Source of the DNA: a virus
Length of the DNA stretch: 64,000 bases
Strand: one strand, 5' to 3'
Virus record (IMG/VR): IMGVR_UViG_3300047462_000185
Coordinates: 32,001 to 96,000 of that record
The stretch's first letter is position 1. Each line of letters starts with the position of its first letter. Shown piece after piece: positions 9,129 through 43,103 of the stretch. The notes below the pieces were generated by a model. The model was not told where the DNA came from, ran no database searches, and saw only the letters and a program-made list of their open reading frames with translations. Made by a program: the position numbers and the translations under genes.

Positions 9129-9189
9129 GAACCGGCACGCCGGCTATGTGCCGACGGCTTCGCCCTCCTTCGGGGGCTCTTCGGGGTTC
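9129..9189 (-). ncRNA. Hammerhead-like element H1 (type I; core CCGAAGA; G15.1-C16.1)
   Basis: GAACC-CCGAAGA-GCCC..GGGC-GAA-GC..GC-C-GGUUC. Confidence 0.7.
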
Positions 9190-9398
9190 GGGCGTGGATC
9201 GTGGCACCAGCGCTGTGTGTAATCACAGAAGTGGCATATCCAGCCGTTGACGGTCGGGGCGAGGTATCCATCACCGCGGGCGTGCTTTCCATCGCCTCGC
9301 CTGGGACAGGTGTAGGGATGGTAGCTCCCGTCGGCCTGGTGATCAGCGAGCAACTGGACGACTTCGGGCGCCCAGGGCGCGTCGAGCCGTGCCATCAC
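9144..9398 (-). CDS. Small Cys/His Zn-finger protein
   Basis: HPYTC...WICHFCDYTQ; stop lies in loop III of H1. Confidence 0.65.
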   Translation of the reverse strand: MMARLDAPWAPEVVQLLADHQADGSYHPYTCPRRGDGKHARGDGYLAPTVNGWICHFCDYTQRWCHDPRPNPEEPPKEGEAVGT

Positions 9399-9886
9399 AT
9401 CCCGTCCGGGATGGGATAGCCGTTCTGGACCAGGAAGGTGCGCCAGGAGGTCTGGGCAATCACGGTGACGCTGCCGTCGCGGCCGATCTCGCTGATCCTG
9501 CTATGCGGACGGTCCATCGCGAGTAACCGCAGCACGGCTTCGTCGAGGGTGAGCCAAGTGATCTTGGCCGTGAGCTGTTCCAGCGTGATCTTCGGATCCA
9601 GCGTGGTGTAGCCGTCCGGGTATTCGTCACCTTCACGCTCCTCGCCGCACACGAAGGCGTTGCCGCCCAGCGGTTGCTTGTCGTGGCGATCTTCGAGCAC
9701 GAACCAATGCTTGTTGAGCGGCGGCAGCAGGCCATCCTCGTCGACCATGAGAGTGTCGCCGTTGGGCCAGCGGAACGCCGCTTCCATTGAGCTGATCCCG
9801 ACCGCGTGTTTGGCGTCGGGATAGATAGATTCGACCTCGACCTCGGTGATGAGCCGAAGCTCTGAGTCGATTTTGAAGATTTTCAC
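9395..9886 (-). CDS. Hypothetical protein (DUF3846-like)
   Basis: LMVDEDGL...PLGGNAFVCG pattern; GTG start after GAAAGG. Confidence 0.6.
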   Translation of the reverse strand: MKIFKIDSELRLITEVEVESIYPDAKHAVGISSMEAAFRWPNGDTLMVDEDGLLPPLNKHWFVLEDRHDKQPLGGNAFVCGEEREGDEYPDGYTTLDPKITLEQLTAKITWLTLDEAVLRLLAMDRPHSRISEIGRDGSVTVIAQTSWRTFLVQNGYPIPDGM

Positions 9887-9891
9887 GGGTT

Positions 9892-9944
9892 GCCTTTCTG
9901 CCGGGATGCGCCGGCTGATCGCGCCACGCTATGCGCGGCAAGGC
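9892..9944 (-). ncRNA. Hammerhead-like element H2 (type III; core GCGAUCA)
   Basis: GCC-UU-GCCGCGC/GCGUGGC-GCGAUCA-GCCGG/CCGGC-A-GAAA-GGC. Confidence 0.7.
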
Positions 9945-9951
9945 GCCTCCG

Positions 9952-10389
9952 TCAGGAGGCTGTATTCCGTGGGTTGACGAGGAATGGGTATTTGACCTCG
10001 CGGCCGAGCACTTGAGAGGCCCAGGCGAGCGGTTCCTTCCAGTCGCGCTCATCACCATCCGATGTGACTTTGATCGCGTCAGAGCAATGCTCCTTCGCTA
10101 TCGCCAGCACCGCGCAAACAACCGTGTCGTATGGCTTTGACGCCGTCTTGCAGAACGAGAAGCTGTCCGACGGGACACGCTCCAGGATGAAAGTCTCGTG
10201 GCCGTCCGGATCGGGGGTTCCGTTAAACCGGATCACGTAGCTGCCGACGTATGGCGGTTCCGGATCATCTTCCTCGTATGCCAGCTTGCAGGGGGCTGCG
10301 CTAATCAGTTTGAACGCATCGTCAGCGATTTTCTGCCAGCGGTCCGATGGGATGCTCTTGTTCTGACGCCAATAATGGGTGTAACCCAT
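9952..10389 (-). CDS. Hypothetical phage protein
   Basis: MGYTHYW...HETF...FCKTASKPYD..V..VL..SDG, a recurrent phage family pattern. Confidence 0.7.
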   Translation of the reverse strand: MGYTHYWRQNKSIPSDRWQKIADDAFKLISAAPCKLAYEEDDPEPPYVGSYVIRFNGTPDPDGHETFILERVPSDSFSFCKTASKPYDTVVCAVLAIAKEHCSDAIKVTSDGDERDWKEPLAWASQVLGREVKYPFLVNPRNTAS

Positions 10390-10396
10390 GTGGTTT

Positions 10397-10447
10397 CCTT
10401 TCTGCCGGTGAGCGCCGGCTGATCGCCCCGCACCTGGTGCGGGAAGG
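10397..10447 (-). ncRNA. Hammerhead-like element H3 (type III; core GCGAUCA)
   Basis: CC-UU-CCCGCAC/GUGCGGG-GCGAUCA-GCCGG/CCGGC-A-GAAA-GG. Confidence 0.7.
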
Positions 10448-10462
10448 CCCCGCGCTAGGCGG

Positions 10463-10729
10463 CTAGGAGGACGGCTCAACGATGGTTTCGAGAACGTCGA
10501 TGGTCTCAAACCGGATCACCTTGAGGCCCAGCCCGGCGTGCTCAGCAAGCACGATTGCAGCGCCGCGCATCTGTTCGAGAATGCCGCGATTGCCATGAAT
10601 CATCGGAAAGGTATCGAGCCCCAACGTGATAGAGGGGATTCCCTCTTTTCCCTTTCCGTCGAAAACGACGAAGGCGAAATACTCGGTGATCGGATCACGC
10701 AGAGGCATGTTTTTCAGAACGTCAGGCAT
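10463..10729 (-). CDS. Hypothetical protein
   Basis: GAGGAG RBS inside H4. Confidence 0.65.
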   Translation of the reverse strand: MPDVLKNMPLRDPITEYFAFVVFDGKGKEGIPSITLGLDTFPMIHGNRGILEQMRGAAIVLAEHAGLGLKVIRFETIDVLETIVEPSS

Positions 10730-10736
10730 TGGGTAT

Positions 10737-10783
10737 CTCCTCGGTCCGGCACTATTGCCGGGGAAGCCTATTCTGGCTTTTCG
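10737..10783 (-). ncRNA. Hammerhead-like element H4 (type II; core CCGAGGA; UUC triplet)
   Basis: C-GAAA-AGCC/GGCU-UC-C-CCGGCA/UGCCGG-A-CCGAGGA-G. Confidence 0.7.
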
Positions 10784-11543
10784 GATGAGCCCTGGACCGG
10801 CGCCGGCGGCGGCTCAGGCCCCGCGCCTTCCTTGTCGTCGGGCGGAGCGGCGGGCGGCTGGTTGATCTTCTGGATCAGGTCATGGGCCAGTTCGGCCGCA
10901 ATCTTGTAGTGCAACTCGCGATCGAGGGCCGGCATGTTGGTGCGCCGCATCGTCTCCTCGATGATCAGGAAAGCGGCAAAAAGCATGTCCTGCATGGGCC
11001 GCTCGTTCAGCAGCGCGACGAGGATATTGTATGTCGCCATCGTGGCGGGAAACCGCATCTGAAGCAGGGCGCGTAGCTGAACGTCGAGGAATTTGGTGCG
11101 CTCGTGCGCCACCACCTCATCGGGCGAAGGGACAATGTTGAACAGCCTCATCGCGTCTTTCTCGTCCATGACTTCCTCGGCCTGGTTGAACAGGTAGGCC
11201 GCGGCGCGGCCTTTCAATTGGGTTTGGTAAGCCCGGAGCCACGGCCGATCAATCGGGATTGCTCGGTTTCGGCGTAATCGATGAAGCTCTTGGCGAGGCT
11301 TTGCATAGCGGCCTCGGTGCGGTTCCGCTCCTCCGGGGTGAAATTGCCATTGCGATAGACAGCCTCCAGTTCGGCGTGGAGCACGAACAGGATGATGATC
11401 TTCGATAACGGTTCGGCCATCAGAACGCCGGCGATGCGCTGACCGAGCTGAGTGACCTTCGATCTGTTGAGATCGATCATCATCTTCAGCTGGGCGGCCA
11501 ATCTTTCCTCGGCAGACATCTGGGAAATTCTGTCGTCTGGCAT
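10768..11543 (-). CDS. Two coupled hypothetical proteins (10768-11217, 11214-11543)
   Basis: Clean ORFs with 4 nt overlap, bracketed by H5 and H4. Confidence 0.6.
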
Positions 11544-11550
11544 TGGGTAT

Positions 11551-11606
11551 CTCCTCAGTCCGGCACTATTGCCGGGGAGCCCGACGGGTGCGCCGTCAGG
11601 GTTTCG
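11551..11606 (-). ncRNA. Hammerhead-like element H5 (type II; core CUGAGGA; CUC triplet)
   Basis: C-GAAA-C-CCUGACGG/CCGUCGGG-CUC-C-CCGGCA/UGCCGG-A-CUGAGGA-G. Confidence 0.7.
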
Positions 11607-11838
11607 TCGCGCGATTTTGCGTCTTCAGTTCGCGGTCAATCTCATGCCGCTCGGTTGTTGTCGTTTCCGATTGGTATAATTCATCCAACAGCCACGCCGT
11701 GGCCCGGCATGACGCCGCGATGCCGTCGCGCTTGCCGCAATAGGACGCAACAACCCGCTGCGCTGCTTCAATCGCTACGACGGCTCGCCGAAGCTTGGTG
11801 AGGTCTTCCATCGTCAGGTTTGTGCCAGATTCTGGCAT
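11596..11838 (-). CDS. Hypothetical protein
   Basis: Lies between H6 and H5; stop inside H5 stem III. Confidence 0.55.
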   Translation of the reverse strand: MPESGTNLTMEDLTKLRRAVVAIEAAQRVVASYCGKRDGIAASCRATAWLLDELYQSETTTTERHEIDRELKTQNRATKP

Positions 11839-11844
11839 TGGGTC

Positions 11845-11922
11845 TAACCTTTTCAACCGACGCACGATTGCGTCGAAACGCATCGAGCCGCAGGGAATGC
11901 CTGCGGCTCGATGTTTCGGTCA
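11845..11922 (-). ncRNA. Hammerhead-like element H6 (type II; core UUGAAAA, U3-A8)
   Basis: UGACC-GAAA-14 bp hairpin-CG-UU-UCGACGCA/UGCGUCGG-UUGAAAA-GGUUA. Confidence 0.7.
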
Positions 11923-13378
11923 GATGCTCAGTCGCTTGCAGATCTTGTCGACCTGCCCGCCAACTGTGGCAAGCTTGCTCGCAAGGTCCTCGGTCGAAGC
12001 GTCAACCGCTTCGGCGACGATGTCTTGCAGGCTGGGGGCTGTCTTGGACGGCACCTTGGTCTCCAGCAGGTCGAGATGCTGCTGCATCCCGGCCGCCGCG
12101 TCGGCGATGTCCTGGTCGGTAATGACGAACTGGCCTCCTCCGGCCCGACCGATCGCATAGAGCTTGGCGCGCTCCACGGCTTCACGGATCACGGCAGGAA
12201 TCTGGCCGGCCAAGACGAGGCCCGCGCGCTCCAGGGTGTCGGCCGCATCGAGGCGGGTGCGCCCATACAGGCGCATCAGCTTGCGAGCCGCCGGCGCGTC
12301 CGGGGGCGTCACGTCGATCACCGCATCGAGCCGACCAGGGCGAAGCATCGCCTTGTTGATCTGCTCGACGTGGTTGGTGGTAAGCGCCACCATGATCTCG
12401 GTGTTCTTCGACTGCACGCCATCGATCGTGTTCAGAATGTCGTCGATCTTCACGGTGCGGTCAGCGCCGGACAAGACCCGGTCGATGTCCTCCGCGAAGA
12501 TGACGCAGGGCTGGTAGGCCTTGGCGAAATCCAAAAGCGTTCGCGAGACCCTTGACCCGCTTCAGCAGCAGGAAGGTCCAGCCGTGCTCGACGGCGATCT
12601 TGGCCGTGGCATGGGCGGTCAGCGTCTTGCCCGTGCCGTAGCGGCCCGAGAGCAGCACACCCCGCTTCAGCGGGATCTTCTGCTCGCGGCACGCCGCGGT
12701 GTGCTTGATCGGGGTCCAGAGCGACGTTTCGATCTGCCGCTCCGTCACCTCGCTGAACACCAGCTCGGTCGTGTCGATCTTGGTCGTGTCGAGGAAGTTC
12801 AGTTCGTCATAGTCCAGGTCACCGTCATCATCGGCTGTCATCGCGAAGGCTTTGCCCTTGTAGATGGACTGCTCCGCGATGAACTTCCGGGTCAGATGTG
12901 CCAGTTCCACGATGGTCTTGTGGAACCGGCGCTCCACCTCGCCACCGATCAGGAAATTCAGACCGGTCTTGCTGCGCCAGGTGTCGCAGGCGACATAGCC
13001 GACGATGCCGGGGATCTCGAAGCGACCCCACACCACCGACATACGCTTGCCGTTGGCACCGATGGTGACATCGAGCGTTTGGGGTGGGTTGTGGCCCCAG
13101 AATCCCGGCGTCGGGACGGCTTCCGCCCAGCCGAACATCGTCGCCATCGCACGGTAAAACGCGACGGCGCCGTCGAGATAATGAGCGTTGATCTTCTCAT
13201 TGATCGCGACCTTCTGGGTCTCCTCGCGCAGCTTGCGCTGCAACGTGTCGATCGCGGTGGGCAAGCCCATCTCGGCCGGCTGGGCCGGTAGCGTGATGTG
13301 CTCGCCAAAGTGGCGAACCGGAACGTCGATCCCTTTGAAGGGATCTTCGAGAACGGCTGGGGTAAACGAATCAGGCAT
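11920..13378 (-). pseudogene. AAA+ ATPase split by a +1 frameshift near 12533
   Basis: Walker A GRYGTGKT in 12461-13378; Walker B VIFAEDID and LRPGRLD in 11920-12534; removing one T from GCTTTTGGAT restores ...LANALDFAKAY. Confidence 0.8.
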
Positions 13379-13475
13379 TTGTTTGTCCTGTTGTTGTGTC
13401 GCGGGGAGCAGCGCGACGGGAAAACTCCCAGCGCTCGCCAACCGTCATGGGGAAGGACGGCGAGGCTTCTGCGGC

Positions 13476-14129: not shown

Positions 14130-14193
14130 GGGGTATCTCCTCAGTGCCGCGCAGAATTGCGTGGCGTATGCCTTGGGGCATTTCGCTGAGCGA
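14122..14193 (-). ncRNA. Hammerhead-like element H7 (type II; canonical CUGAGGA, GAAA, AUA triplet)
   Basis: UCGCUCA-G-C-GAAA-UGCC/GGCA-UA-C-GCCACGCA/UGCGCGGC-A-CUGAGGA-G..UGAGCGA. Confidence 0.8.
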
Positions 14194-21154: not shown

Positions 21155-21223
21155 CGGACAGGTCTCCTCAGTCCTGGCTCCATTGCCAGGGGACCGCCTA
21201 GTCGGCGGCTTCGACGTCCGATG
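21152..21223 (-). ncRNA. Hammerhead-like element H8 (type II; CUGAGGA; GUC triplet; 11 bp stem II covering the AUG)
   Basis: CAUCGGAC-GUC-GAAG-CCGCC/GGCGG-UC-C-CCUGGC/GCCAGG-A-CUGAGGA-GAC-CU-GUCCGAUG. Confidence 0.8.
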
Positions 21224-21488: not shown

Positions 21489-21492
21489 TGCG

Positions 21493-21557
21493 GGTCTCCT
21501 CAGTCCTGGCCCAATTGCCAGGGGACCGCCGATCAAACGAGATCGGCGGGGTCGACC
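21493..21557 (-). ncRNA. Hammerhead-like element H9 (type II; GAAA changed to GACC)
   Basis: GGUC-GACC-CCGCCGAUC/GAUCGGCGG-UC-C-CCUGGC/GCCAGG-A-CUGAGGA-GACC. Confidence 0.65.
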
Positions 21558-30203: not shown

Positions 30204-31275
30204 ATGCCTCAGCACTTCCTCCTGTCAGCAAAGGCCCGGACGCTCTCGCTAGCGTCGGTGCTGCGCATGACGGACGAACAGGCTGAGACGGCCTTCATCC
30301 GCATCCGCTGGGCGGCGACCGAAGGCAAGCCGGTGTGCGTCCATTGCGAGTGCCCGACCGTGTGGGACTGCCGCAAGGCGAATGGCTTGCCCCGCTGGCG
30401 CTGCAAGGCGTGCCGCAAGAGCTTCTCAATCACCAGCGGCACGATCTTCGCTTCCCGTAAGATGCCGCTGCGCAACTACCTCGCGGCCATCGCGATCTTC
30501 GTCAACGAGGTCAAGGGCAAGTCGGCGCTGGCGCTGTCCCGCGATCTCGGGTGCCAATACAAGTCGGCCTACGTCCTTGCGCACAAGCTGCGCGAGGCGA
30601 TGGCGTCCGAGTTGAAAGGGCTGCGGCTGGGCGGTCCCGGCCGCGTGGCCGAAGTCGATGGCGGCTACTTCGGCGGCTACGTAAAGCCGTCCAACCGCGT
30701 CGAGAACCGCCGTGATCGCCGACTTGCCAAAAACCAGAACGGCAAGCGCCAGGTGGTCGTCGTGGTCCGCGAGCGCGAAGGCCGCACCCTTCCCGCAGTG
30801 TTCAAGTCGGAAAGCGCCGCACTCGGCTTCATCGCCCGCAGCGTCGCCAAGGACACCCAGATGATGGCCGATGAAGCCCCGTCATGGAACGGGCTGCATG
30901 CGCGGTTCGCCATGCAGCGGATCGACCATCAGGCGATGTATTCGGACCGGGCCGGGGTCTACACGAACGGAGCCGATCGCCAGGGCGAGACCGAACCGGA
31001 GCAGGACAAGGTCTCAGACATCATCGCCGGGCGCGCGCTGGCCTGTCTCGAACACGTCCGGAAGGTGCGGTTCGGCGAGGCGTCGGCAAATTTCCAGATC
31101 TCGGATAGCGACAATCTTCCCCTCATCGTGAATATCACGGTCAGCCTCGACCGCAACAAATGGACGCGGCACACCTGATGTCGTTCTGGGTGGTAAGCGT
31201 CATCGTCGCGCCGCTCGCGGCCGAAGTCGCCGCCGCCTATCTCGACTGCCGACACTGAGTAGTCACTAAACCCCG
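30204..31275 (+). mobile_element. IS1595-family element, transposase truncated at C-terminus
   Basis: Zn ribbon CVHC..CKAC, FSITSGTIF, EVDGGYFGG, MADE, IDH..YTNGA then unrelated tail; candidate right end AGTCACTAAACCCC near 31261-31274. Confidence 0.8.
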
Positions 31276-31874: not shown

Positions 31875-32387
31875 ATGCCGTCGTTCCTCGACACGTTCTT
31901 CCCGACCAGGCCGGCCCAGGAGCGGCTCGAGCTGCTCGCCGCGCTCTATGAACCGCTGGGCCGGGAACTGGCCCTGGCCTACGAGAAGCTGGAGGACCAG
32001 GCCGCCCTGGAGCGCTCGCTGAGGGCCGCGGCCGACGCCAGCTTCGCTATTCCGGGCGCTGACATGGAGCGGATCGCCTCGATCAAGATGGCGCGGGTCG
32101 AGGCGCGCCTGATGACCCGGCTCGCGGTTCGGAACGTCCTGATGCGGCGCCTCTGTGCCGCGCTACAGGAGGTTCAGGACTGGCTGGCCGCCAATGTCAC
32201 GCCCGAGGGCCTGGAGGCCTGGGAGGCGCGCCACGGCCCGCTGCTCAGCGAAGAAGAGCTAATGGCTCGTTTGGGCGTGCTGCTGGCCGAGGCAGACCAG
32301 CGGGACGGATCCGATGCGGCACCCCGTAGTGATCTACCACGGCCCATAGATCGGCAAGGCTCCGAATCACATAGACCGGGTGATTGA
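31875..32387 (+). CDS. Hypothetical protein
   Basis: Helical ORF with phage-like codon usage. Confidence 0.55.
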   Translation: MPSFLDTFFPTRPAQERLELLAALYEPLGRELALAYEKLEDQAALERSLRAAADASFAIPGADMERIASIKMARVEARLMTRLAVRNVLMRRLCAALQEVQDWLAANVTPEGLEAWEARHGPLLSEEELMARLGVLLAEADQRDGSDAAPRSDLPRPIDRQGSESHRPGD

Positions 32388-35134: not shown

Positions 35135-35790
35135 GGGTCGCATGGGGTGGTTCGGGCGACCACCACACCCCCATGCCTCGCAAATGTGGGCCGAGCATGA
35201 TCCGGCTCGACGCGGCAGCGCATCATTCGTGCGCACTTCCTGGTCGCCCAAAGGGTGAAGTCCCGGTTTCAGTGTGTCGGCCGGTCCCGGGGGAACGGGT
35301 GGAACCGGCCGACCTGGTCACGCCACCGTCAGGGTCTCTTGGGCGGTGGCTACCGGGACGTGATCAGCTCCAGCAGGCCAAGGGCTGGGCGGGCGAGCGA
35401 TTGTGTTGGTTCGACACGTGTTGTCCGAACCGTGGCTTCGCGGCTGATCACGATCCACGCGCCGGCGCTTTCCGTCGTCATGGGCAAGCCCATCACCGGT
35501 GCGTTTCGGTGCGTTGGCCCGATCTGGTGACGTCCGCGCTGCCTCGGGTGACGCGGGTCGGAATCGGCTCTTGGCGGTATCTTGAGAATTGTCGAGAGAG
35601 TTGCCTGAGGTGCCGATACGTCTTCGATCGGTATCATCCTCTGATCCTGGCGTCCTTCGCCTGGACCGCTCGGTCGACGCGCCAGTGATTGGCAGCGTGT
35701 AGCACCGCTGAAGGGAGTGCGAGCGTCCTGTGGGATGATCGGCTGCTGCGCCAATGGCGCGCTGCCTGAGTGATAGATGGGGAGGCGTAT
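35135..35790. ncRNA. Candidate large structured non-coding RNA
   Basis: No credible ORF; many nested helices; G-U pairs favour the + strand. Confidence 0.5.
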
Positions 35791-35794
35791 CATT

Positions 35795-35841
35795 CCTTTC
35801 AAGGGGTGAACCCTTTCATCGGCCTGCATCGAGCAGGAAGG
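35795..35841 (-). ncRNA. Hammerhead-like element H13 (type III; core CCGAUGA; canonical C3-G8 and GAAA)
   Basis: CC-UU-CCUGC/GCAGG-CCGAUGA-AAGGG/CCCUU-GAAA-GG. Confidence 0.8.
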
Positions 35842-35855
35842 CCCGCCGGAGCGGG

Positions 35856-36213
35856 TTAGTCGGTGGGAGGCCGGTCGACGAAGACCGAGCCAACCTGCGT
35901 GTATGAGAATTTCCCGATATGCACGCTGGTGATGAAATTCACGCGCAGGCCAGCTTCATGAGCGGCTTGGATGGCTTTGTTGAGCTGATCAGACCTTTGG
36001 CGAATCAGCACTTCGTGTTCCTCGTCTGTCACGTCAGCCGTCCTTCGCGGTGATTTTCAGCTTCCAGTCGCCAACGGTGTTGCCGTTGATGTCGACGGCG
36101 TTGCCCTCCATGAGTCCGTTTTGAATCTGGTGGGAAACCTCGCGCAGTATGCGGGTCATTTCGCTTGCGCCATAGCCGTCGTTGAACGCGGCGTTGCCTG
36201 TGTCGATCTTCAT
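35856..36213 (-). CDS. Two small hypothetical proteins (35856-36032, 36034-36213; not in ORF track)
   Basis: MTDEEHEVLIRQRSDQLNKAIQAAHEAGLRV..; MKIDTGNAAF..DINGNTVG. Confidence 0.6.
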
Positions 36214-36228
36214 TCTGAATATGTGGTT

Positions 36229-36273
36229 CTCCTCAGTCCGGCGGGATGCCGGGCACCGGGTCAGCCGGTTTCG
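36229..36273 (-). ncRNA. Hammerhead-like element H14 (type II; CUGAGGA; G17)
   Basis: C-GAAA-CCGG/CCGG-UG-C-CCGGC/GCCGG-A-CUGAGGA-G. Confidence 0.7.
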
Positions 36274-36677
36274 ATTGCGTTTACGTCGGCGATACGCGCT
36301 ACGGTCTGGCGCTTGCCGTCAAGAGTCACACCTACGACGGAAGGGATAAACCCTGCCGCATCGTAGAAACGCACCACGCGGAAAATCAAAGTGGGATATC
36401 CGATCAAGGTGAAGTGGCTCATCTTTCGTCTCCTCAGTCCGGCGGGATCGCCGGGCACCGGCTAGGCCGGTTTCGTCTCAGGCCATTCGATGCCTTCCGC
36501 GACGCCTGCGAGATGATAGATGTCGCGGGGCGATACGTCAGTAGGAGCCGAAAGACGGCAAGCGTTCTGCGCGAAGGCGACCTTTGCCGCAGGCATTCCG
36601 GCTGCTGCGTTCCGGGCGAGATGCCGCAGATGTGGGTAGCGCCGCACGTAGGCGTCGAGAACTGATTGTGGGATCAT
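36261..36677 (-). CDS. Two small hypothetical proteins (36261-36422, 36462-36677)
   Basis: Each has its RBS in a type II element and its stop in the next element. Confidence 0.6.
36430..36475 (-). ncRNA. Hammerhead-like element H15 (type II; CUGAGGA; G17)
   Basis: C-GAAA-CCGGC/GCCGG-UG-C-CCGGCG/CGCCGG-A-CUGAGGA-G. Confidence 0.7.
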
Positions 36678-36683
36678 TATTTT

Positions 36684-36740
36684 CTCCTCAGTCCGGCGGG
36701 ATGCCGGGCATCCGGCCAGGTCGATCCTGGCCGGGTTTCG
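36684..36740 (-). ncRNA. Hammerhead-like element H16 (type II; CUGAGGA; G17)
   Basis: C-GAAA-C-CCGGCCAGG/CCUGGCCGG-AUG-C-CCGGC/GCCGG-A-CUGAGGA-G. Confidence 0.7.
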
Positions 36741-37421
36741 CTAAAAGGTGAAGGCGCGAATCACGGGCGCGCTGCCGTCAAGCGGCGCGTAGCACGTCCG
36801 GACCGAGGGCCGGTCGATCTGCACGGTTAGCGTCCCTGTGGGATGCGCGTTCTCCGCCTCGATCATCACCCGGGCCAGCCGGTAGATTGTCGAGCAGTTC
36901 AGCTCGTGGGCGCGCGCTTCGGTGATGGTGCCCTCCGTGGTGAAGAGCGAGACCTCGCCGCTGAGCCATCGCGTCGCTCCCTCCATAGTCAGCCCGGATG
37001 GACTGTAGTCCAGCGACCCGTAGGGGCGAGGCTGGATGGAGATGTGGGACACATGGCTCCGCTCCACCCGGGCAACGTATTGCCTGATCGGCGTGGGAGA
37101 AGCGGCGTCGGCCTGGAAGGCGCTGATACGCTCGAGCTGCAGGCAGAGCAGCTTGATGGCTGTCTGATATTCGCTGTCCTTCGGCCTTTTCTTGCCGAGA
37201 TAGCGCCAGAACGCCGGCAGGGAGCTGGTGCGCATGACGTGGTCATGGGCATACCAGAGCCCGTGGCTGATGTTCCGGGGGTCGGGTTCCTCGTTGGCGC
37301 GGCCGTCCATCTGCTGGATGAAGGTCCGCAGATGGGGGTGGGTCGGGGCCGTGGTGCCGATCGCACCGGCGCCGGCCAGGCCGCGCACGAAGTCCGACGT
37401 CATGTCGTAGAGCAAGGTCAT
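36741..37421 (-). CDS. Hypothetical protein
   Basis: Start MTLLYDM follows the GAAAGG of H17. Confidence 0.6.
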   Translation of the reverse strand: MTLLYDMTSDFVRGLAGAGAIGTTAPTHPHLRTFIQQMDGRANEEPDPRNISHGLWYAHDHVMRTSSLPAFWRYLGKKRPKDSEYQTAIKLLCLQLERISAFQADAASPTPIRQYVARVERSHVSHISIQPRPYGSLDYSPSGLTMEGATRWLSGEVSLFTTEGTITEARAHELNCSTIYRLARVMIEAENAHPTGTLTVQIDRPSVRTCYAPLDGSAPVIRAFTF

Positions 37422-37427
37422 TAGTGT

Positions 37428-37481
37428 GCCTTTCTGCCGGGAAGCGCCGGCTGATCGCGCTGGATGGGGGTCCAGCAAGGC
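37428..37481 (-). ncRNA. Hammerhead-like element H17 (type III; GCGAUCA)
   Basis: GCC-UU-GCUGGA/UCCAGC-GCGAUCA-GCCGG/CCGGC-A-GAAA-GGC. Confidence 0.7.
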
Positions 37482-37491
37482 CCCTGGTTGG

Positions 37492-37689: not shown

Positions 37690-38049
37690 GGCAGTTCGCC
37701 GGTCGGGCGGCCGAGCTTGCGCCGCAGCCGGTTGATCTGCGGCTCGTAGAGGGCGCGCGCCGCCGGCGTCGCAGCGGCTAGCTGCTCGGCGATGAACTGG
37801 CGGTCTCTTGGGCATTTGGCGAGCCTGGATGGGGCGAACCGGGTCGACATCGACCACTCACCGGGTCGACATCGACCACTCGCCCCCGATCCGCTTGCAG
37901 GCCGCCTCCGCGGCGTTCCTGGCACGATTGGCGGCCAGGTCTTCAAGGTGTGCGATCTCGGCGCGGATGCGCTGGATCACCTCGTCACGGGTCGGACCGG
38001 GCGTGGTGAGTGCAGGACCGCCGTTGTGGCCGATTTTCGATAGTGGCAT
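37686..38049 (-). pseudogene. Small gene frameshifted by a 22 bp tandem duplication
   Basis: ACCGGGTCGACATCGACCACTC twice at 37838-37881; EWSMSTR appears in both frames. Confidence 0.65.
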
Positions 38050-38051
38050 GG

Positions 38052-38112
38052 GAGGCCTTTCTGCCGGCGAAGCGGCCGGCTGGACGCGCTGCACGGTGTG
38101 CAGCAAGGCCCC
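38052..38112 (-). ncRNA. Hammerhead-like element H18 (type III; GCGUCCA)
   Basis: GGGGCC-UU-GCUGCAC/GUGCAGC-GCGUCCA-GCCGG/CCGGC-A-GAAA-GGCCUC. Confidence 0.7.
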
Positions 38113-38113: not shown

Positions 38114-38532
38114 CTAGGCGGGGGTAGCAGGCCCCTCAGGGCGCATGGAGTTGGGATGGGTGGGCAGCTGGCACCGCTTCGTCGTGAAGCGCGCCAGGCG
38201 CCGGTTTTCGCGTCGGATGAACCGAACCGCACTGGCCAGCGCCGCGACCTGGTCGGTCGCGAAGCAGTCGAGCGTCACGTAGTTGTGGTAGCTCGGGTGC
38301 CAGAAGCGATAGGTGAACATCTGCACGGCTACGCCGTCATGATCAGCAGCTGCTCGGCGCCATAGACTGCCGCCTCGCCGCACATCTCGCACTCGCCGCC
38401 TTCCATGTCGGGCTCGCATTCCTCGGCCTCTGCGCCGCATGCGGTGCAGAAGCCGGGGCTGTCGAGACTGGTTAGGTGCCGTTCGACCGCTTTCATGATG
38501 CGGTCCGTCGTGATGGACTCATGGATCTTCAT
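38114..38532 (-). CDS. Two small hypothetical proteins (38114-38320; Zn-ribbon 38329-38532)
   Basis: Second has GFCTACG..EPD..CEMCG..VYGAE. Confidence 0.6.
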
Positions 38533-38538
38533 GGGTAT

Positions 38539-38591
38539 GCCTTTCTGCCGGTAAGCGCCGGCTGATCGCGCTGCACGGTGTGCAGCAAGGC
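38539..38591 (-). ncRNA. Hammerhead-like element H19 (type III; GCGAUCA)
   Basis: GCC-UU-GCUGCAC/GUGCAGC-GCGAUCA-GCCGG/CCGGC-A-GAAA-GGC. Confidence 0.7.
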
Positions 38592-38597
38592 GCCCGG

Positions 38598-39050: not shown

Positions 39051-39057
39051 GGGTTGG

Positions 39058-39110
39058 TCCTTTCTGCCGGTGAGCGCCGGCTGGACGCGCTGGACGAGGT
39101 CCAGCAAGGA
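39058..39110 (-). ncRNA. Hammerhead-like element H20 (type III; GCGUCCA)
   Basis: UCC-UU-GCUGGAC/GUCCAGC-GCGUCCA-GCCGG/CCGGC-A-GAAA-GGA (stem III covariation). Confidence 0.7.
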
Positions 39111-39113
39111 GCT

Positions 39114-39245
39114 TCACCCCTCTGCATCTGGATCAGATTGGCGAGGCGTGAAGCAAAGCACTCCGATCAGCAGGCCAGCACCTAGCCCGATTAGGCCAAG
39201 GCTGCCCCATCTGAGCAACGTGCTGATGAGGAACAAAAGAGTCAT
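39114..39245 (-). CDS. 43 aa membrane peptide
   Basis: MTLLFLISTLLRWGSLGLIGLGAGLLIGVLCF..; between H21 and H20. Confidence 0.55.
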   Translation of the reverse strand: MTLLFLISTLLRWGSLGLIGLGAGLLIGVLCFTPRQSDPDAEG

Positions 39246-39251
39246 GGGTGT

Positions 39252-39304
39252 GCCTTTCTGCCGGATAGCGCCGGCTGATCGCCCCGCATCGGATGCGGGA
39301 AGGC
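39252..39304 (-). ncRNA. Hammerhead-like element H21 (type III; GCGAUCA)
   Basis: GCC-UU-CCCGCAU/AUGCGGG-GCGAUCA-GCCGG/CCGGC-A-GAAA-GGC. Confidence 0.7.
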
Positions 39305-39310
39305 CCGCCG

Positions 39311-39790
39311 TTAGGCGGGGATAGGCTTCTCCGGCGCCAGCGGTGCATCGATCCGCAGGAACTCGTTGATGGGGTTGTGGTCCGCCTGTTCGTAGGCGCT
39401 CGTGTCGATCTCGCGCAGCTCGATGGTCTGGCTGTAGGCGACATGCCAGCACACGTGATCCTTGGAGGTCACGTGCGCGACCAGGCAGTCGAACCTGTCG
39501 CCCGGAGCCTTCGAAATGGCGGTCTCGGCGTTCATTCGGTCCACCGGATTTTCCATGTTGAGATAGCGCCAGAACATCCAGACGTGGCTGGTGCGCGAGT
39601 CGATCATTGGCCATTCCAGGCCTTCCTTGTGCTGGATGATGTCGCCGCGCTTGAAGGTCGGGACGGCCTTGTTGAACTGGGCCAGCCTGGCGCGCAGCTC
39701 GACCACCTGAGCCTCGGGAATGTCCCGATGCGTTTTCTGGTCGACCGTGCCGCGGGCCGCGCCCATCAGGTCTGAAAGTGAAAGAAGCAT
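39311..39790 (-). CDS. Hypothetical protein
   Basis: Start MLLSLSD after H22. Confidence 0.6.
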   Translation of the reverse strand: MLLSLSDLMGAARGTVDQKTHRDIPEAQVVELRARLAQFNKAVPTFKRGDIIQHKEGLEWPMIDSRTSHVWMFWRYLNMENPVDRMNAETAISKAPGDRFDCLVAHVTSKDHVCWHVAYSQTIELREIDTSAYEQADHNPINEFLRIDAPLAPEKPIPA

Positions 39791-39798
39791 GGATGTTA

Positions 39799-39851
39799 TC
39801 CTTTCTGCCGGGACGCGCCGGCTGATCGCTCCGCGGGGATCGCGGAAAGGA
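39799..39851 (-). ncRNA. Hammerhead-like element H22 (type III; GCGAUCA)
   Basis: UCC-UU-UCCGCG/CGCGGA-GCGAUCA-GCCGG/CCGGC-A-GAAA-GGA. Confidence 0.7.
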
Positions 39852-39891
39852 ATGAGCCGCCCCACCCGATTTGGGCAGGGCGGCTCGTTGG

Positions 39892-40699
39892 TCAGATACT
39901 CGGCTCGGGCCGCTCCTCGATCACGACATTGCCGAGATCGATGGCGGGGCTGGGAGCCTCGCGGGTGAACATCGCCTTGGCACGGCGCATGCCGGCCTGG
40001 CTGGCGGTGCTCAGCTTGCTCATCCCGGTCGTGGCGCAGCGGTGGGCCTGGTAGGCGCCATATGCGGCGACACCGATCGTGCCGCAGATCACCACCACGG
40101 CGGCGAGAGCCTGGACGCCTTGAAGGGCCCCTTCACGGAGCATGGGAGCGGCGGCGCGGCCCACGTTGACCATGACGGGAACGGCGGGACGGATGATGGA
40201 CTGGAGCATGGGGTGTTCTCCTTGGGATTTCGCCGGAAGCGCCGGCTGAACGCCCTCAGCTGAGCTGAGGGATCCCGGACCGCGCCACTTGTGGCGCAGC
40301 CCTCGCGCGGGGGCGTTCGCATCGCTGCGGCCCGCACGACCTAGGGATTGATCAGGCATTGACGACTTGTTGCAGCACGCCGCGCAGCTGGTCGCGATGA
40401 GGGGTCAGCAGTTCGGCAGTCGCCAGAATCTGCAGCCCCGTCGCGAAGCAGTTGCGTGACCGTGTGATCGTGTCGAGATGATCAGGGGGGAAGTCTGTCC
40501 CGACCAGGGCCAGGATGATCATCTCGTTGCGGCGCCGGCGCCGGGCCATGCCGATCCGGATCCGCTGTATCAGGTCTTTGCCTTCGTCGTAGAGCAGCTG
40601 GTATCCGGCCGAGAGGGTAATGCCGCCGACCAGGGCGCCGAGCGCAACCGCGCCGCGCCTCAGGAAGGGCCGGGCCAATGCTGTGGACATGGGGGTCAT
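39892..40699 (-). CDS. Two hypothetical proteins with single TM segments (39892-40209, 40352-40699)
   Basis: Each has an AAGGAG RBS immediately after H23 or H24. Confidence 0.6.
40224..40276 (-). ncRNA. Hammerhead-like element H23 (type III; GCGUUCA; AUC triplet, exact canonical spacing)
   Basis: GGGA-UC-CCUCAGC/GCUGAGG-GCGUUCA-GCCGG/CCGGC-GAAA-UCCC. Confidence 0.75.
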
Positions 40700-40710
40700 G
40701 CGTCTCTCCT

Positions 40711-40767
40711 TGGTGTTTCGACCGGTCGGACCGGCCCTTATCGAGGGTCAAACGTGACCCGAAACCA
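40711..40767 (-). ncRNA. Hammerhead-like element H24 (type III; UCGAUAA, U3-A8)
   Basis: UGGU-U-UC-GGGUCA/UGACCC-UCGAUAA-GG-GCCGGU/ACCGGU-C-GAAA-C-ACCA. Confidence 0.7.
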
Positions 40768-40871
40768 CAGCGAGACTCATGTTTACACAGATATATGTGG
40801 TTTGAAAAAGAAGAATTTCAAGACCCGAAACGATTTCCGCCCCGACTGCCGAGGTTCGCCTGTGGGGTTGG

Positions 40872-40916
40872 TCCCACCCGCGTCGCGGGTTCGCGCCTGA
40901 AGCGCTCGTCGGGGGA
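40872..40916 (-). ncRNA. Hammerhead-like element H25 (type I; CCGACGA; C15.1-G16.1)
   Basis: UCCC-CCGACGA-GCGC/GCGC-GAA-CCCGC/GCGGG-U-GGGA. Confidence 0.75.
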
Positions 40917-40931
40917 TCTGGGTGGCGGCCC

Positions 40932-41159
40932 TCAATGGATCTCGTATCGCTCGATCATGAGCCAGCCGCCGCATCTCTGGGGCTTGCAGGTGCAGGCGCC
41001 AGGGACGGCGATCATTTCGACCGAGCCGTCTGGGCAGGACAGGATGCAGCCACGTGGCGTGGTGTGGACGTGGTAGCCGCACCCCTCGTAGTGGCGGGCC
41101 GACATGTTGATGAACTGGTCGAGCGAGACGACCTTCTTGGGTCTCTGGCGCGCAGCCAT
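40932..41159 (-). CDS. Small Cys-rich protein
   Basis: GGAG RBS; several Cys. Confidence 0.55.
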   Translation of the reverse strand: MAARQRPKKVVSLDQFINMSARHYEGCGYHVHTTPRGCILSCPDGSVEMIAVPGACTCKPQRCGGWLMIERYEIH

Positions 41160-41199
41160 TGATGCTTCTCCGTGTCGTGAGGCGCGGGGATCCACGCCT

Positions 41200-41243
41200 T
41201 CCCGCCCGGCTCAGCCGGGTTCGCCTTGCGGCTCATCAGGGGA
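41200..41243 (-). ncRNA. Hammerhead-like element H26 (type I; canonical CUGAUGA; C15.1-G16.1)
   Basis: UCCC-CUGAUGA-GCC-GCAA-GGC-GAA-CCCGGC/GCCGGG-C-GGGA. Confidence 0.8.
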
Positions 41244-41856
41244 TTTTTTCGGCACGAAAGATTTCATGCCGCCGTCGTTTTCGATCTGATGGTGATTTTT
41301 CAGCGTATCGGACAGCAATCTGGCGACGCTGCCTGAACTGAGAAAGCCGATGATTTGCTTCTGATCGACGCCTAACTTGGCGACGCACTCGTTGTAGATT
41401 TCCATCGGCGAGAAGTTGCGATAATCCTGCGTGAGTTCGACGCGCACCAGCGCATAGATGACGTTGGTCCCGTCGCTCAGCAGGGTTTTGATCGTATTGG
41501 GCATATCTGACATGGGGATCTCCTTATGTTGGTCCCGCCCGGCCTAGCCGGGTTCGCCCTTGGCGGGCTCGTCTGGGGATTTGGGACGGCTAACGAACAT
41601 CGCGGTGCTCAGCTTGCTCGGTCATTGGCATGTTGCGCATAATGCCGAGCAGGATATTACGAGCTGCGGATGAGTTCATCGTCGTGATAACGGTCTCGGT
41701 CGACAACCTAGCGTGGCGCACCACGTCGGACTTTATCTCATCCGGCGCGTAGTTCTTGAGCGAATAGGGAAGCTCGAACCGCACCAGGGCATAGCCCACC
41801 TTCGGTCCGTCTAGCTCGGCCATCTGCTTGATTATTGCCATCGGGTGCATTGGCAT
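41211..41856 (-). CDS. Two paralogous small proteins (41211-41513, 41590-41856)
   Basis: IYALVRVEL..NFSPMEI vs GYALVRFEL..NYAPDEI. Confidence 0.6.
41533..41579 (-). ncRNA. Hammerhead-like element H27 (type I; CAGACGA)
   Basis: UCCC-CAGACGA-GCCC/GGGC-GAA-CCCGGC/GCCGGG-C-GGGA. Confidence 0.75.
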
Positions 41857-41893
41857 GGGGATTTCCTTCTGCTGAAGCACATATTGATGTGCT

Positions 41894-41945
41894 TTCCCGC
41901 CCGCACACAAGCGGGTTCGCGCCTATGCGGCGCTCGTCTGGGGAA
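41894..41945 (-). ncRNA. Hammerhead-like element H28 (type I; CAGACGA)
   Basis: UUCCC-CAGACGA-GCGCC/GGCGC-GAA-CCCGC/GCGGG-C-GGGAA. Confidence 0.75.
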
Positions 41946-43000
41946 GCTCGGCCAGCATCTGGGGTGAAAGGCGCAGGTTGGCGTGGGGACGCCGCGCCGC
42001 CTCTTGGCAGGCCATGTAGCCGATTGCCTGGCGAATCTTCTGCGCCGCGGCGTGAACCGTGCCGTCATAGGCCGGTTTCGTCACCACGGGCACAGACCAA
42101 CCGGCCACCTTGTGCAGGCCGCATTGGAGAGCGCCGCCGGCATGCAAGCTCTGAATCGCCGTCTCGAAGGCTTTCACCTCGTGGGGCTGGACCACGGCGC
42201 AGAACCGTAGCTCGGCCGTGGTGTAGGTCTGGCGCTGGTTGATCGCCATAGCAAGCAGGACGCGCCGCTCCATTGGATCGGTGAACATGGGAATCTCCTA
42301 TTTGGTTGGTCCCACCCGCCGCAGCGGGTTCGCGCCGTCAGGCGCTCGTCTGGGGAAGGAACTGGTCGGCCGGCGCCGCGCTGTCGCGGATCGCCTCGGC
42401 GATCGCGGCCGTCACCTCGTCTCGATCGGGCCGGAACGGCCGGTGATCGAGGGTCAGGTCGGCCGAGACGCGGATCACGGCGGCGCGCCGAACAGAGCAG
42501 GGCCAGCTGGACAGTGTCATGCGGAACATGGGGATATGCCTTTCTGCCGGGAAGCGCCGGCTGATCGCGCTGGATGGGGGTCCAGCAAGGCGCCCGCGCT
42601 AGGCGGGCTCCAGGACATGCTCCTGGGCAGGAACGGTTGGCCTGGTGGTGAGAGGCGTGCCATCGGGGTGCTCGCCCCACGCCTTCAGGCGCTCGATCGC
42701 GAGATCGAACATCTTCAGCACGGCCGGGTGGCCATACACGTCGTTCAGGTGAATGACGCTTAAGGCTCCTGGCTCAACCGCTCTCACGACCGAGGTCAGG
42801 GTCGGTGTGCCGCGCTCACCGTCGAGCTCGGCATTTTGGCTGACGAAGCGACAGGCCCCGATGGCGCACCACCGGACCGCGTTCGCCTGCAAAGCGAACG
42901 CGGATTCGCCCGAAGCATCGCGTGCCGCGGCAAACCGGCAATACCGATTTGGATCGCTGATCAGCGCCCGCGCCGCGACATACATCTCGAATTCGGTCAT
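41923..43000 (-). CDS. Three hypothetical proteins (41923-42288, 42338-42529, 42599-43000)
   Basis: Each is bounded by hammerhead-like elements; last has an RWCAIGA..ND motif. Confidence 0.6.
42310..42356 (-). ncRNA. Hammerhead-like element H29 (type I; CAGACGA)
   Basis: UCCC-CAGACGA-GCGCC/GGCGC-GAA-CCCGC/GCGGG-U-GGGA. Confidence 0.75.
42538..42591 (-). ncRNA. Hammerhead-like element H30 (type III; GCGAUCA; identical to H17)
   Basis: Same 54 nt sequence as 37428-37481. Confidence 0.7.
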
Positions 43001-43043
43001 GGAATCCTCCGTGTGGCCCGGAGCAGGGGCCGGTTGATCAAGC

Positions 43044-43103
43044 TCCTCCCCCGTGCCACATCGGCATGGGATTCGCGGTCCGATCAGAACCGCTCGTCAG
43101 GGA
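43044..43103 (-). ncRNA. Hammerhead-like element H31 (type I; CUGACGA; irregular cleavage-site region)
   Basis: UCC-CUGACGA-GCGGU/ACCGC-GAA-UCCCAUGCC/GGCACGGGG-GA-GGA. Confidence 0.6.

Follow-up and report, generated by a model that had tools for sequence, protein, structure and literature searches.

Three families of hammerhead-like RNA repeats lie between small leftward genes of a temperate phage

Introduction

Clusters of hammerhead ribozymes of mixed type flank single prophage genes in Agrobacterium tumefaciens, Azorhizobium caulinodans and Clostridium scindens, and these clusters have been proposed to process long phage transcripts (Perreault et al., 2011; PMC3088659). Natural core variants, namely U15.1-A16.1, U3-A8, U4C and a U13a insertion, are rare, occur singly and have each been assayed. 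They show some tolerance of core change; loss of the A15.1-U16.1 pair costs at least 10-fold in activity (PMC3088659).

Here we describe a temperate phage from moss metagenomes that carries 26 solid copies of structured RNA repeats between its small leftward genes, within a window of 64,000 nucleotides (positions 32,001 to 96,000 of IMG/VR record IMGVR_UViG_3300047462_000185). Like the prophage clusters, the repeats are intergenic among small phage genes, bring arrangements of types I, II and III together, and have had the same role proposed for them; the hosts, there as here, are likely alphaproteobacterial. The original prediction considered the copy number and mix of permutations unfamiliar, and while mixed-type prophage clusters were published in 2011, those hold 2–3 canonical, fast-cleaving ribozymes, as against 26 elements here, none of them canonical. 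A further difference is that the Shine-Dalgarno sequence here is fused to the element or paired within it. The suggested role, cutting long phage RNA into single-gene mRNAs, is not new and is already found in Perreault et al. (2011).

Results

About 25 of the 32 spacer-bearing leftward junctions, in the intervals 9.1–14.2, 21.1–22.7 and 35.1–43.1 kb, carry repeats on the minus (coding) strand, as had been predicted. They are real, strand-specific and located at gene junctions, but instead of one class of about 31 equivalent hammerheads they form three distinct families, A (n = 7, type I-like), B (n = 11, type III-like) and C (n = 8, type II-like), with a few doubtful copies besides. The seven predicted type I copies were recovered exactly, while the 11 of type II and 13 of type III are reduced to eight and 11 solid copies, respectively. 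Positions 9129 and 43103, the ends of the predicted array, both fall within genuine family A members.

Helices are retained in 26/26 copies, and none has a fully standard hammerhead core, making self-cleavage plausible for some copies and proven for none. The families deviate systematically, each in its own way, and every copy departs from consensus at a position important in the literature (PMC3088659), which counts against a hammerhead reading. The positions affected are those hit in natural variants: 15.1-16.1 in family A, 3-8 (swapped) and the GAAA strand (with an insertion) in family B and, in every family, position 4. Unlike the rare natural variants, the changes here are family-wide, namely C15.1-G16.1, the combination of G3-C8, C4 and an extra A, and C1.1·A2.1. 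Changes expected to abolish catalysis occur in seven copies (G17 in three, A6U in three, A14C in one). Although all three permutations are present, the junction strands are hammerhead-like and published variants tolerate some core change (PMC3088659), these presumably lethal changes, the non-consensus family B core with its insertion, the lack of a stem II or pseudoknot in family C, and Rfam scores that nowhere approach the gathering threshold make it very improbable that all of the roughly 26–31 elements are active type I–III hammerheads dividing the early RNA into mRNAs of one or two cistrons.

Searches of the whole region with Rfam hammerhead models gave no match at the gathering score or at E ≤ 10, the best scores being 18.5 against 37 bits and 17.4 against 52. 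Out of 4227 Rfam families, those that align are hammerhead models (HH9 type I and Hammerhead_II), with the core correctly placed, at 14–18 bits. A strictly canonical hammerhead descriptor had zero matches in the genome. The topological signature first proposed as a marker (a 7-nt linker, a GAA linker and one unpaired base), in any permutation, matched 82 times on the minus strand, 100 on the plus strand, 51–85 in shuffles and about 107 per 64 kb of natural control DNA; a junction topology of this generic kind is common by chance. Most copies of families B and C do not carry it, owing to the extra A in B and, in C, to the C·A mispair together with a stem II that is nearly missing. A core-aware version of the relaxed descriptor was minus-enriched (15–16 matches, as against 0–1 on the plus strand, 3–11 in shuffles and 5.6 per 64 kb of control DNA), with the excess made up by family A and a match at 35822 alone.

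Family A and the element at 35788–35843 do resemble hammerheads, as does family C in its core letters only; this much of the predicted identity stands, while the lack of any canonical copy, the ill-fitting variation of family B and the presumably lethal changes in seven copies weigh against it. In family A, C3, G5, A6, G8, A9, G10.1-C11.1, G12-A14 and a non-G at position 17 are invariant (7/7). The 7-nt strand varies at positions 4 and 7 only, where hammerheads are least constrained, and stems II and III vary in sequence and length. Pairing is 95.5%, as against 36–54% in slid controls; 7 of 14 pairs show compensatory changes, and minimum free energy (MFE) folds give the exact junction for all seven copies. 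The claim that stems differ yet keep pairing is thus borne out here, as it is by 95.9% pairing in family B (27–44% in controls, with covariation) and by six different stem III sequences in family C. Nine catalytic letters are kept over three lineages with unrelated stems, and as the elements lie in different phases of upstream reading frames or outside them, this conservation is at the RNA level. Counting against activity, A15.1-U16.1 is found in 0/7 copies, stem I is 4 bp, and metatranscriptome contigs span two predicted cuts; no stem I/II tertiary contact is visible in the family. The Shine-Dalgarno sequence is unpaired and lies 10–12 nt past the element.

All seven are on the minus strand. 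The copy at 9125–9190 (CCGAAGA, GAA, G-C at 15.1-16.1, C17, stem I GAACC/GGUUC; model R1 16.9 bits, E 0.034) folds by MFE as a three-way junction and has the upstream UAG stop inside its stem III loop. That at 40867–40918 (CCGACGA, C15.1-G16.1, U17) is 3' of the last gene of its block. The copy at 41195–41245 (H26; CUGAUGA, stem II GCC-GCAA-GGC, GAA, C15.1-G16.1, C17; Rfam HH9 14.3 bits) overlaps the final nine codons of the upstream ORF, with the UGA stop inside the stem III loop, and the predicted string CUGAUGAGCCGCAAGGCGAA is present at 41220–41239. CAGACGA is found in three copies: 41528–41581 (C15.1-G16.1, C17; Rfam HH9 17.4 bits), with a predicted cut at 41537/41536 that is spanned by RNA contig 41361–41605; 41892–41946, with the upstream UAG stop inside its stem II loop; and 42305–42358 (U17; upstream UGA stop inside the stem II loop), with a predicted cut at 42314/42313 that is spanned by RNA contig 42280–42507. 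The loosest copy, 43042–43106 (CUGACGA, U15.1·G16.1, A17, stem II of 7 bp, stem I of 3 bp; R1 13 bits, E 0.34), sits in the leftward operon's 5' leader.

In family B, GCGAUCA stands where hammerheads have CUGANGA, giving G3, C4 and C8, with an extra A before G12 in 9/11 copies and U at position 6 in 3/11, and the downstream Shine-Dalgarno sequence, AAGG, is paired with CCUU, as is also seen in MFE folds. Ten minus-strand copies were scored with the family B model, R3: 9886–9945 (75.6 bits), 10390–10449 (76.3 bits), 37422–37482 (79.4 bits), 38049–38110 (J12 GCGUCCA, 6-bp stem II; 69.8 bits), 38533–38592 (85.5 bits), 39052–39111 (J12 GCGUCCA with U at position 6, 5' of a DUF3085 gene; 76.2 bits), 39246–39305 (5' of a small hydrophobic ORF; 80.6 bits), 39793–39852 (U-A as outer stem III pair; 75 bits), the variant 40219–40276 (J12 GCGUUCA, GAAA without the extra A, stem III GGGAU/AUCCC; 37.7 bits) and 42532–42592 (80.2 bits). 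The last of these reads GCCUU, stem I hairpin, GCGAUCA, GCCGG..CCGGC, AGAAAGGC, AUG; it has 55 identical nt in common with 37422–37482, and a chimeric RNA contig connects 37426 with 42537 in these two copies. M23 (RF03006) likewise has a hairpin followed by GAAAGG, but at 17.7 bits (gathering 41.2) this is a likeness only.

Stem II, the loop start (CGC) and both junction strands of family B are invariant over nine copies, in contrast to the freely varying stem I and upstream hairpin, a pattern better matched by a protein-binding site, or by a GCG/CGC pseudoknot, than by a hammerhead. T4 RegA and RegB offer analogues for a phage translational repressor or endoribonuclease regulon, and the junction strands might be recognition sites for such a protein acting over about 10 early genes, the clearest case being the invariant 32-nt GCGAUCA-hairpin-AGAAAGG of family B, which overlaps the Shine-Dalgarno sequence. 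We consider this unlikely, as we have no candidate protein and the invariance could equally come from recent duplication or from the pseudoknot.

The divergent, type III-like family B member at 35788–35843 (minus strand; CCGAUGA, GAAA, A15.1-U16.1, U17; R3 16.9 bits, E 0.008) has the most canonical core among the type III-like copies, with U4C as the sole core-strand change, and no Rfam match. As the family B model picks it up, the scaffold accommodates both C3/G8 and G3/C8. An RNA contig with its upper edge at 35824, 10–40 times as abundant as its neighbours, starts about 14 nt or less from the predicted cut at 35838/35837, and no sigma-70-type promoter was found near its start, both of which speak for cleavage at this element.

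In family C the strands are CGAAA and CUGAGGA-G, the core itself serving as Shine-Dalgarno sequence. CUG ahead of AGGAGA is exclusive to family C elements (7 of 18 AGGAGA-type sites), and CGAAA is conserved both outside coding sequence and in either of two reading frames. Cleavage is argued against by C·A at 1.1-2.1 in 8/8 copies, G17 in three and GAC in one; stem II is 1–4 bp, mostly 1–2 bp, and no consistent pseudoknot was found across the family. Among the textbook cores claimed originally, that of 14133–14188 (H7) does hold all 13 core letters (CUGAGGA, GAAA, A-U, A17), with C·A at 1.1-2.1 and a 1-bp stem II, while H26 has C15.1-G16.1. The remaining copies, also on the minus strand, are 10733–10786 (core CCGAGGA); 11547–11609, in which CUCC 5' of stem I pairs with the Shine-Dalgarno GGAG; 21160–21216 (H8; GAA, G15.1·U16.1, C17, stem II GUC/GAC; Rfam Hammerhead_II 18.5 bits, gathering 37); 21492–21557 (GAC for GAA, stem II GGUC/GACC, UCC paired with the Shine-Dalgarno GGA); 36225–36276 and 36426–36478 (both A15.1-U16.1 and G17; R2 12.0 and 11.3 bits), with upstream UGA and UAG stops, respectively, inside the stem III loop; and 36680–36743 (C-GAAA, stem III of 9 bp, U, G17, C·A-flanked stem I, CUGAGGA-G as Shine-Dalgarno sequence). 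At 36679–36739, GAAAC, a GGCAUyCCGCC hairpin and GAGGAGAAA are shared with RAGATH-10 (RF03147; 19.1 bits, gathering 41.2), whose outer helix is missing here, so that this too is a likeness only. A doubtful type II-like match at 11165–11224 (minus strand), which shares the frame of a TTG start and has 88% GC at third codon positions, may lie within coding sequence.

None of families A, B and C is carried by relatives of the phage, but two related viral contigs have putative canonical type II hammerheads, L051 at 3801–3882 and L063 at 3205–3280 and 3561–3636, between the stop codon and the next Shine-Dalgarno sequence and with a loop I/3' tail pseudoknot. Their layout (stop, GUC-GAA-A, stem III, U-C, stem I, CUGAnGA-GAC, Shine-Dalgarno, AUG) is that of family C, their 3-bp stem II GUC/GAC is the same as in 21160–21216, and a DUF3085 gene is common to L051, L063 and this phage. 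They differ from family C in three ways: their 1.1-2.1 pair is Watson-Crick where family C has a C·A mispair, their GAGC/GCUC pseudoknot is conserved where family C shows none consistently, and their Shine-Dalgarno sequence stands apart, downstream, where that of family C overlaps the core. The R2 model, built from these canonical ribozymes, gave family C 8–12 bits only, which counts against the hammerhead reading.

Discussion

We take the elements, tentatively and at slightly less than even confidence, to be hammerhead-derived intercistronic RNAs. They might instead be structured cassettes that link the translation of adjacent genes and do not self-cleave, in which a terminating ribosome melts the stop-codon hairpin and so frees a masked Shine-Dalgarno sequence, and whose hairpins may in addition protect the mRNA; the hammerhead likeness would then be a relic of ancestral ribozymes or reflect purine-rich ribosome-binding sites beside hairpins. 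In nearly all copies the stop codon is in a loop or 5' arm, or 3–11 nt ahead of the CCUU anti-Shine-Dalgarno, and CCUU/AAGG (B) and YUCC/GGAG (4/8 C) are paired in MFE folds. Such cassettes would also account for helices that persist where seven copies have lost catalytic letters, for the want of canonical copies, for RNA contigs bridging two family A sites and for a generic topology frequent by chance. They do not explain why family A, with its Shine-Dalgarno sequence unpaired, still keeps its nine catalytic letters over three lineages, why family C has CUG and CGAAA, which are unnecessary for masking or as Shine-Dalgarno sequence, or why apparently true hammerheads occupy the same junction position in related phages. 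Taken as a whole, we give this alternative substantial but minority weight.

As hammerhead-derived RNAs, the three families would punctuate two leftward early operons on a hammerhead three-way-junction plan. Self-cleavage is plausible in family A, 35788–35843 and some family C copies, and doubtful in family B. Family A, 35788–35843 and those members of family C that lack G17 probably cleave themselves as weak hammerhead variants, which would cut polycistronic RNA at gene boundaries. We infer a further link to translation in each of the three families: the upstream stop codon is in a loop or 5' arm of the element, and the downstream Shine-Dalgarno sequence either belongs to the core itself (C), is held in pairing within the element (B, and half of the C copies) or follows 10–12 nt later (A). 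Given this placement, upstream termination, or cleavage, would free the next ribosome-binding site. The majority of family B copies have probably lost cleavage and would now act as ribosome-binding-site masks.

The phage and its leftward gene arrays

The window comes from one contig of 106,637 bp with a G+C content of about 63% and belongs to a temperate phage, whose gene products include an integrase, a ParB-like protein, ERF and YqaJ recombination proteins, a primase-helicase, a portal protein and a terminase with an intein. The terminase large-subunit gene (44459–47035, plus strand) is split by this intein, which bears a LAGLIDADG homing-endonuclease domain; the genome also carries an IS1595-family transposase gene (30204–31178, plus) and an array of 14 tRNA genes (61395–63924, plus). 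Neither megablast nor blastn found nucleotide relatives in the phage collection, and searches of metagenome contigs with the ERF protein found no relative. The public runs that contain the phage are moss and plant metagenomes and metatranscriptomes, and the named homologues of its DUF3085 protein come from Alphaproteobacteria.

A gene map based on codon bias places two leftward arrays of small genes at 8.5–23.8 kb and 34.9–43.0 kb. When all leftward junctions with a spacer were listed, about 25 of 32 were found to carry coding-strand repeats of three families, here called A (seven copies, type I-like), B (11 copies, type III-like) and C (eight copies, type II-like). A small ORF of roughly 47 codons for a hydrophobic peptide, absent from the gene map, lies between two family B elements (39130–39275, minus), and a 121-aa protein encoded between two family A copies is an ORFan that matched only itself. 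The first family A element is adjoined on its upstream side, in the leader of the leftward operon, by a GC-rich hairpin followed by CUUUUU (43107–43145, minus), which resembles an intrinsic terminator, aligns to the Rfam suhB/mmgR model at 23 bits, and might represent an attenuator or a small-RNA end.

Searches for hammerhead ribozymes

The original prediction held that about 31 hammerhead-fold elements, in all three permutations, punctuate these arrays. We judged candidates by junction strands of 7, 3 and 1 nt, the C3–A9 core, GAA, an A15.1-U16.1 pair, a position 17 other than G, Watson-Crick pairs flanking the core and, for activity at physiological Mg2+, a tertiary loop-loop or pseudoknot contact linking stem I to stem II. 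The Rfam search that had been proposed as a check gave no hammerhead at gathering score in the whole window, and none at E≤10 over 8000–44500. On short stretches the best hammerhead matches were 18.5 bits to Hammerhead_II (gathering score 37), where the family C copy at 21160–21216 is aligned without stem II, and 17.4 and 14.3 bits to the type I model HH9 (gathering score 52), which, in a 2.4-kb stretch, aligns to two family A copies with the core correctly placed. All three families thus score below the gathering threshold that is the criterion for the Rfam hammerhead clan CL00010.

A descriptor of our own, spanning the three permutations, found no site on either strand in its strictly canonical form (CUGANGA, GAA, A15.1-U16.1, H17). 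With one mismatch permitted in the 7-mer and any pair accepted at 15.1-16.1, it matched 15–16 sites on the minus strand versus 0–1 on the plus strand and 3–11 in dinucleotide shuffles. In 535 kb of related phage DNA the same descriptor matched 5.6 times per 64-kb strand, and on the shuffle and control rates about half of the minus-strand matches are coding-sequence background, the excess consisting of the type I junction cluster and one type III junction. The looser topology on which the prediction had drawn (any 7-nt linker, a GAA linker and one unpaired base) does not discriminate, occurring 82 times on the minus strand, 100 times on the plus strand, 51–85 times in shuffles and about 107 times per 64 kb of control DNA; by the prediction's own refuting condition, a similar rate on the opposite strand or in shuffled sequence, topology alone is not evidence. 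Within the families themselves, GAA (G12 A13 A14) is present in 25 of the 26 copies, the exception being the family C copy at 21492–21557, with GAC.

Three families of intercistronic RNA elements

Family A comprises five tight copies at 40.8–42.4 kb and two divergent ones at 9125–9190 and 43042–43106, all built as UCCC, C-N-G-A-N-G-A, a stem II that opens with G-C, GAA, stem III, a pyrimidine and GGGA, followed by AGGAGAUCCCC-AUG. Minimum free energy (MFE) folds give the exact 7/3/1 three-helix junction in all seven copies. Helix cells are paired in 95.5% of cases versus 36–54% in slid controls, a comparison favoured by the fitting of the alignment to the model, and compensatory changes occur at 7 of 14 pairs. 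Some elements extend into the 3' ends of their upstream genes, in differing phases and with the stop codon in the loop of stem II or III, and others lie wholly in spacers, so that it is the RNA that is conserved. The 7-mer core varies solely at positions 4 and 7, with U4 in only two copies; all nine catalytic letters are retained throughout, and position 17 is never G. The 15.1-16.1 pair is C-G in five copies, G-C in one and U·G in one, and A-U in none. Watson-Crick pairs flank the core (1.1-2.1 and 10.1-11.1), as they also do in family B; stem I has 3–5 bp, and inspection found no consistent contact between stems I and II. K-turns and k-junctions have a bulged strand of 5 nt; the strand of family A has 7 nt and conserves C3, G5 and A6, and a reading as either motif was rejected on these grounds.

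Family B begins with a hairpin that contains the stop codon, followed by GCCUU, a variable stem I hairpin and GCGAUCA, and continues with GCCGG-CGCnnnC-CCGGC, AGAAAGGC, 5–8 nt and AUG. Covariation is seen at four of six stem I pairs and the outer pair of stem III changes from G-C to U-A in two copies, while the 32-nt segment from GCG to AAAGG does not vary. The core reads GCGAUCA in seven copies, GCGUCCA in two, GCGUUCA in one and CCGAUGA in one. Read as a hammerhead, the family would have G3, C4 and C8, so that the consensus core could be reached only by a 3-8 swap, except in the CCGAUGA copy; an extra A precedes G12 of GAA in nine of the 11 copies, and position 6 is U in three. Position 17 is never G, and A15.1-U16.1 occurs in all 11, where it coincides with the pairing of CCUU with the Shine-Dalgarno AAGG that the MFE fold also contains. 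An H-type pseudoknot could arise from the pairing of two invariant triplets, GCG in the junction and CGC where loop II begins. The only Rfam match of the family, a weak one to M23, was rejected as a mere hairpin followed by GAAAGG.

The covariance model of family B also matches 40219–40276 (37.7 bits) and a divergent, type III-like scaffold member at 35788–35843 on the minus strand (16.9 bits, E 0.008), which has the most canonical core in the genome, with CCGAUGA, GAAA, A15.1-U16.1 and U17. No Rfam hammerhead model matched this element or the family B copies.

In family C, C-GAAA is followed by a stem III hairpin whose loop often contains the stop codon, then by U, N, C-[stem I]-A, CUGAGGA-G-A, 5–15 nt and AUG. 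Six distinct stem III and three distinct stem I sequences occur around a core of CUGAGGA (seven copies) or CCGAGGA (one copy). The Shine-Dalgarno sequence is AGGAGA, and in four copies its GGAG pairs with YUCC in the MFE fold. A15.1-U16.1 is present in six copies, with another pair in two; position 17 is non-G in five and G in three near 36.2–36.7 kb, where it is able to pair with C3. G10.1-C11.1 is present, yet C1.1·A2.1 is found in all eight copies, and the three-helix junction, with a stem II of 1–4 bp, is obtained only if this C·A mispair is accepted as a pair. Inspection revealed no consistent pseudoknot or complementarity between stems I and II, a 4-bp candidate being confined to two copies near 21.2–21.5 kb. 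The C·A mispair, G17, the single GAC, the two pairs other than A-U, the short stem II and the lack of a consistent pseudoknot all speak against hammerhead membership of this family. RAGATH-10 (RF03147) aligns to 36679–36739 at 19.1 bits, below its gathering score of 41.2 and with the pairs of its outer P1 helix unformed, and membership was rejected on both grounds; a literature search on RAGATH returned no RAGATH-10 content.

As all three families are tied to the ribosome-binding site of the next gene and to the stop codon of the previous one, translational coupling is the main rival to self-cleavage and is likely to be a second function of the elements. In family C, the CUG that precedes the Shine-Dalgarno sequence is exclusive to these elements and CGAAA is kept in two reading frames as well as in non-coding context, and the ribosome-binding site alone therefore does not explain the hammerhead letters.

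Related phages and published hammerheads

Pattern scans and protein searches found none of the three families in other phages; the DNA scans, run on viral and genome collections, matched nothing but coding look-alikes or a generic GC hairpin with a Shine-Dalgarno sequence behind it. Alignment of DUF3085 homologues yielded 43 related viral loci, in which the models of families A and B had no significant match. The ten closest of the DUF3085 loci contain no hammerhead at Rfam gathering score, the search returning only two tRNAs. Three canonical type II hammerheads were found in two related viral contigs that have a DUF3085 gene in common with this phage, L051 (3801–3882) and L063 (3205–3280 and 3561–3636), all of the pattern GUC-GAA-A[stem III]U-C-[stem I]-CUGAnGA-(U)GAC. 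In each of them loop I and the 3' tail form a GAGC/GCUC pseudoknot, after which come AAGGA and AUG. They immediately precede the ribosome-binding sites of small genes, and in L063 one stands ahead of each of two consecutive small genes. Their layout is that of family C and their arrangement is as described by Perreault et al. (2011), but the GAGC/GCUC contact has no consistent counterpart in families A and C. When a model built from these hammerheads was run on the window, four family C copies were among the top matches, yet at 8–12 bits, no better than the chance matches with which they were mixed. Unrelated phages (viral contigs L007 and L009–L011) have an AGAAAGG Shine-Dalgarno sequence, 8–14 nt before AUG, to which a CAGCCGGC-loop-GCCGGCAG hairpin is fused. 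This unit equals the 3' half of family B, and such fusions of a hairpin with the ribosome-binding site may be more widespread among phages.

Prophage clusters of type I, II and III hammerheads that flank single genes have been described, three of which cleaved in vitro, with processing of long phage transcripts as the proposed role (Perreault et al., 2011; PMC3088659). In that survey nearly all cores fit the consensus; natural variants that remain active include U3-A8, the slower U15.1-A16.1, and U4C, which is active in vivo, and mispairs adjacent to the core, the class to which C1.1·A2.1 of family C belongs, were a reason for rejection. The changes seen here, C15.1-G16.1, G3-C8 with an inserted A, and C1.1·A2.1, are family-wide and are not known to be active.

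Transcripts from the arrays

The RNA data are assembled metatranscriptome contigs from four samples, which cannot define RNA ends. The leftward array is covered at a depth of 1–10 in the four samples and the rightward genes at 24.8–34.7 kb show almost no expression, a contrast that points to RNA and not to contaminating DNA. Contigs run across two predicted family A cut sites (41537/41536 and 42314/42313) as well as one family B element, and some molecules are therefore uncut. An abundant non-coding RNA at about 35353–35824 (depth 41–132, with genes just upstream at 3–8) lies directly downstream of the element at 35788–35843 and has no Rfam match; the fold of 35345–35837 is unremarkable (z = −1.68), and a scan of 35150–36050 found no sigma-70-type promoter or terminator. 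The upper edge of this RNA falls 13 nt short of 35837, the predicted 5' end of the 3' cleavage product (cut at 35838/35837), which is a weak hint of cleavage, since contigs cannot define ends and assemblies break at repeats. For the latter reason, contigs that stop at repeated elements were rejected as evidence of RNA ends. One RNA contig joins 37426 to 42537 through 55 nt identical in two family B copies; the joint is most likely an assembly chimera, but repeats this long might also promote recombination between gene cassettes.

Origin and significance of the elements

We conclude that the elements are genuine and probably hammerhead-derived. Self-cleavage is a tentative but reasonable prediction for family A, the element at 35788–35843 and those family C copies whose position 17 is not G, and is unlikely for most family B copies. 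It seems improbable that the full set, some two dozen hammerhead-derived ribozymes in three permutations, still cleaves despite C15.1-G16.1, G3-C8 with an inserted A, and C1.1·A2.1, with a core that doubles as or masks the Shine-Dalgarno sequence, so that folding and cleavage would gate translation of each early gene. The concept itself is already published; new would be the family-wide core deviations, the copy number and the overlap with the Shine-Dalgarno sequence.

If none of the elements cleaves, they would provide an example of hammerhead folds decaying into, or reused as, structures for translational coupling, and would illustrate how readily ribozymes are over-called by relaxed descriptors in GC-rich DNA. 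If some of them do cleave, they would widen the sequence space of natural hammerheads at the 15.1-16.1, 3-8 and 1.1-2.1 pairs, which are regarded as near-invariant, and would form the densest ribozyme array in one phage genome. Through the overlap of the core with the ribosome-binding site, or its masking of that site, RNA self-cleavage would be tied directly to the initiation of translation.
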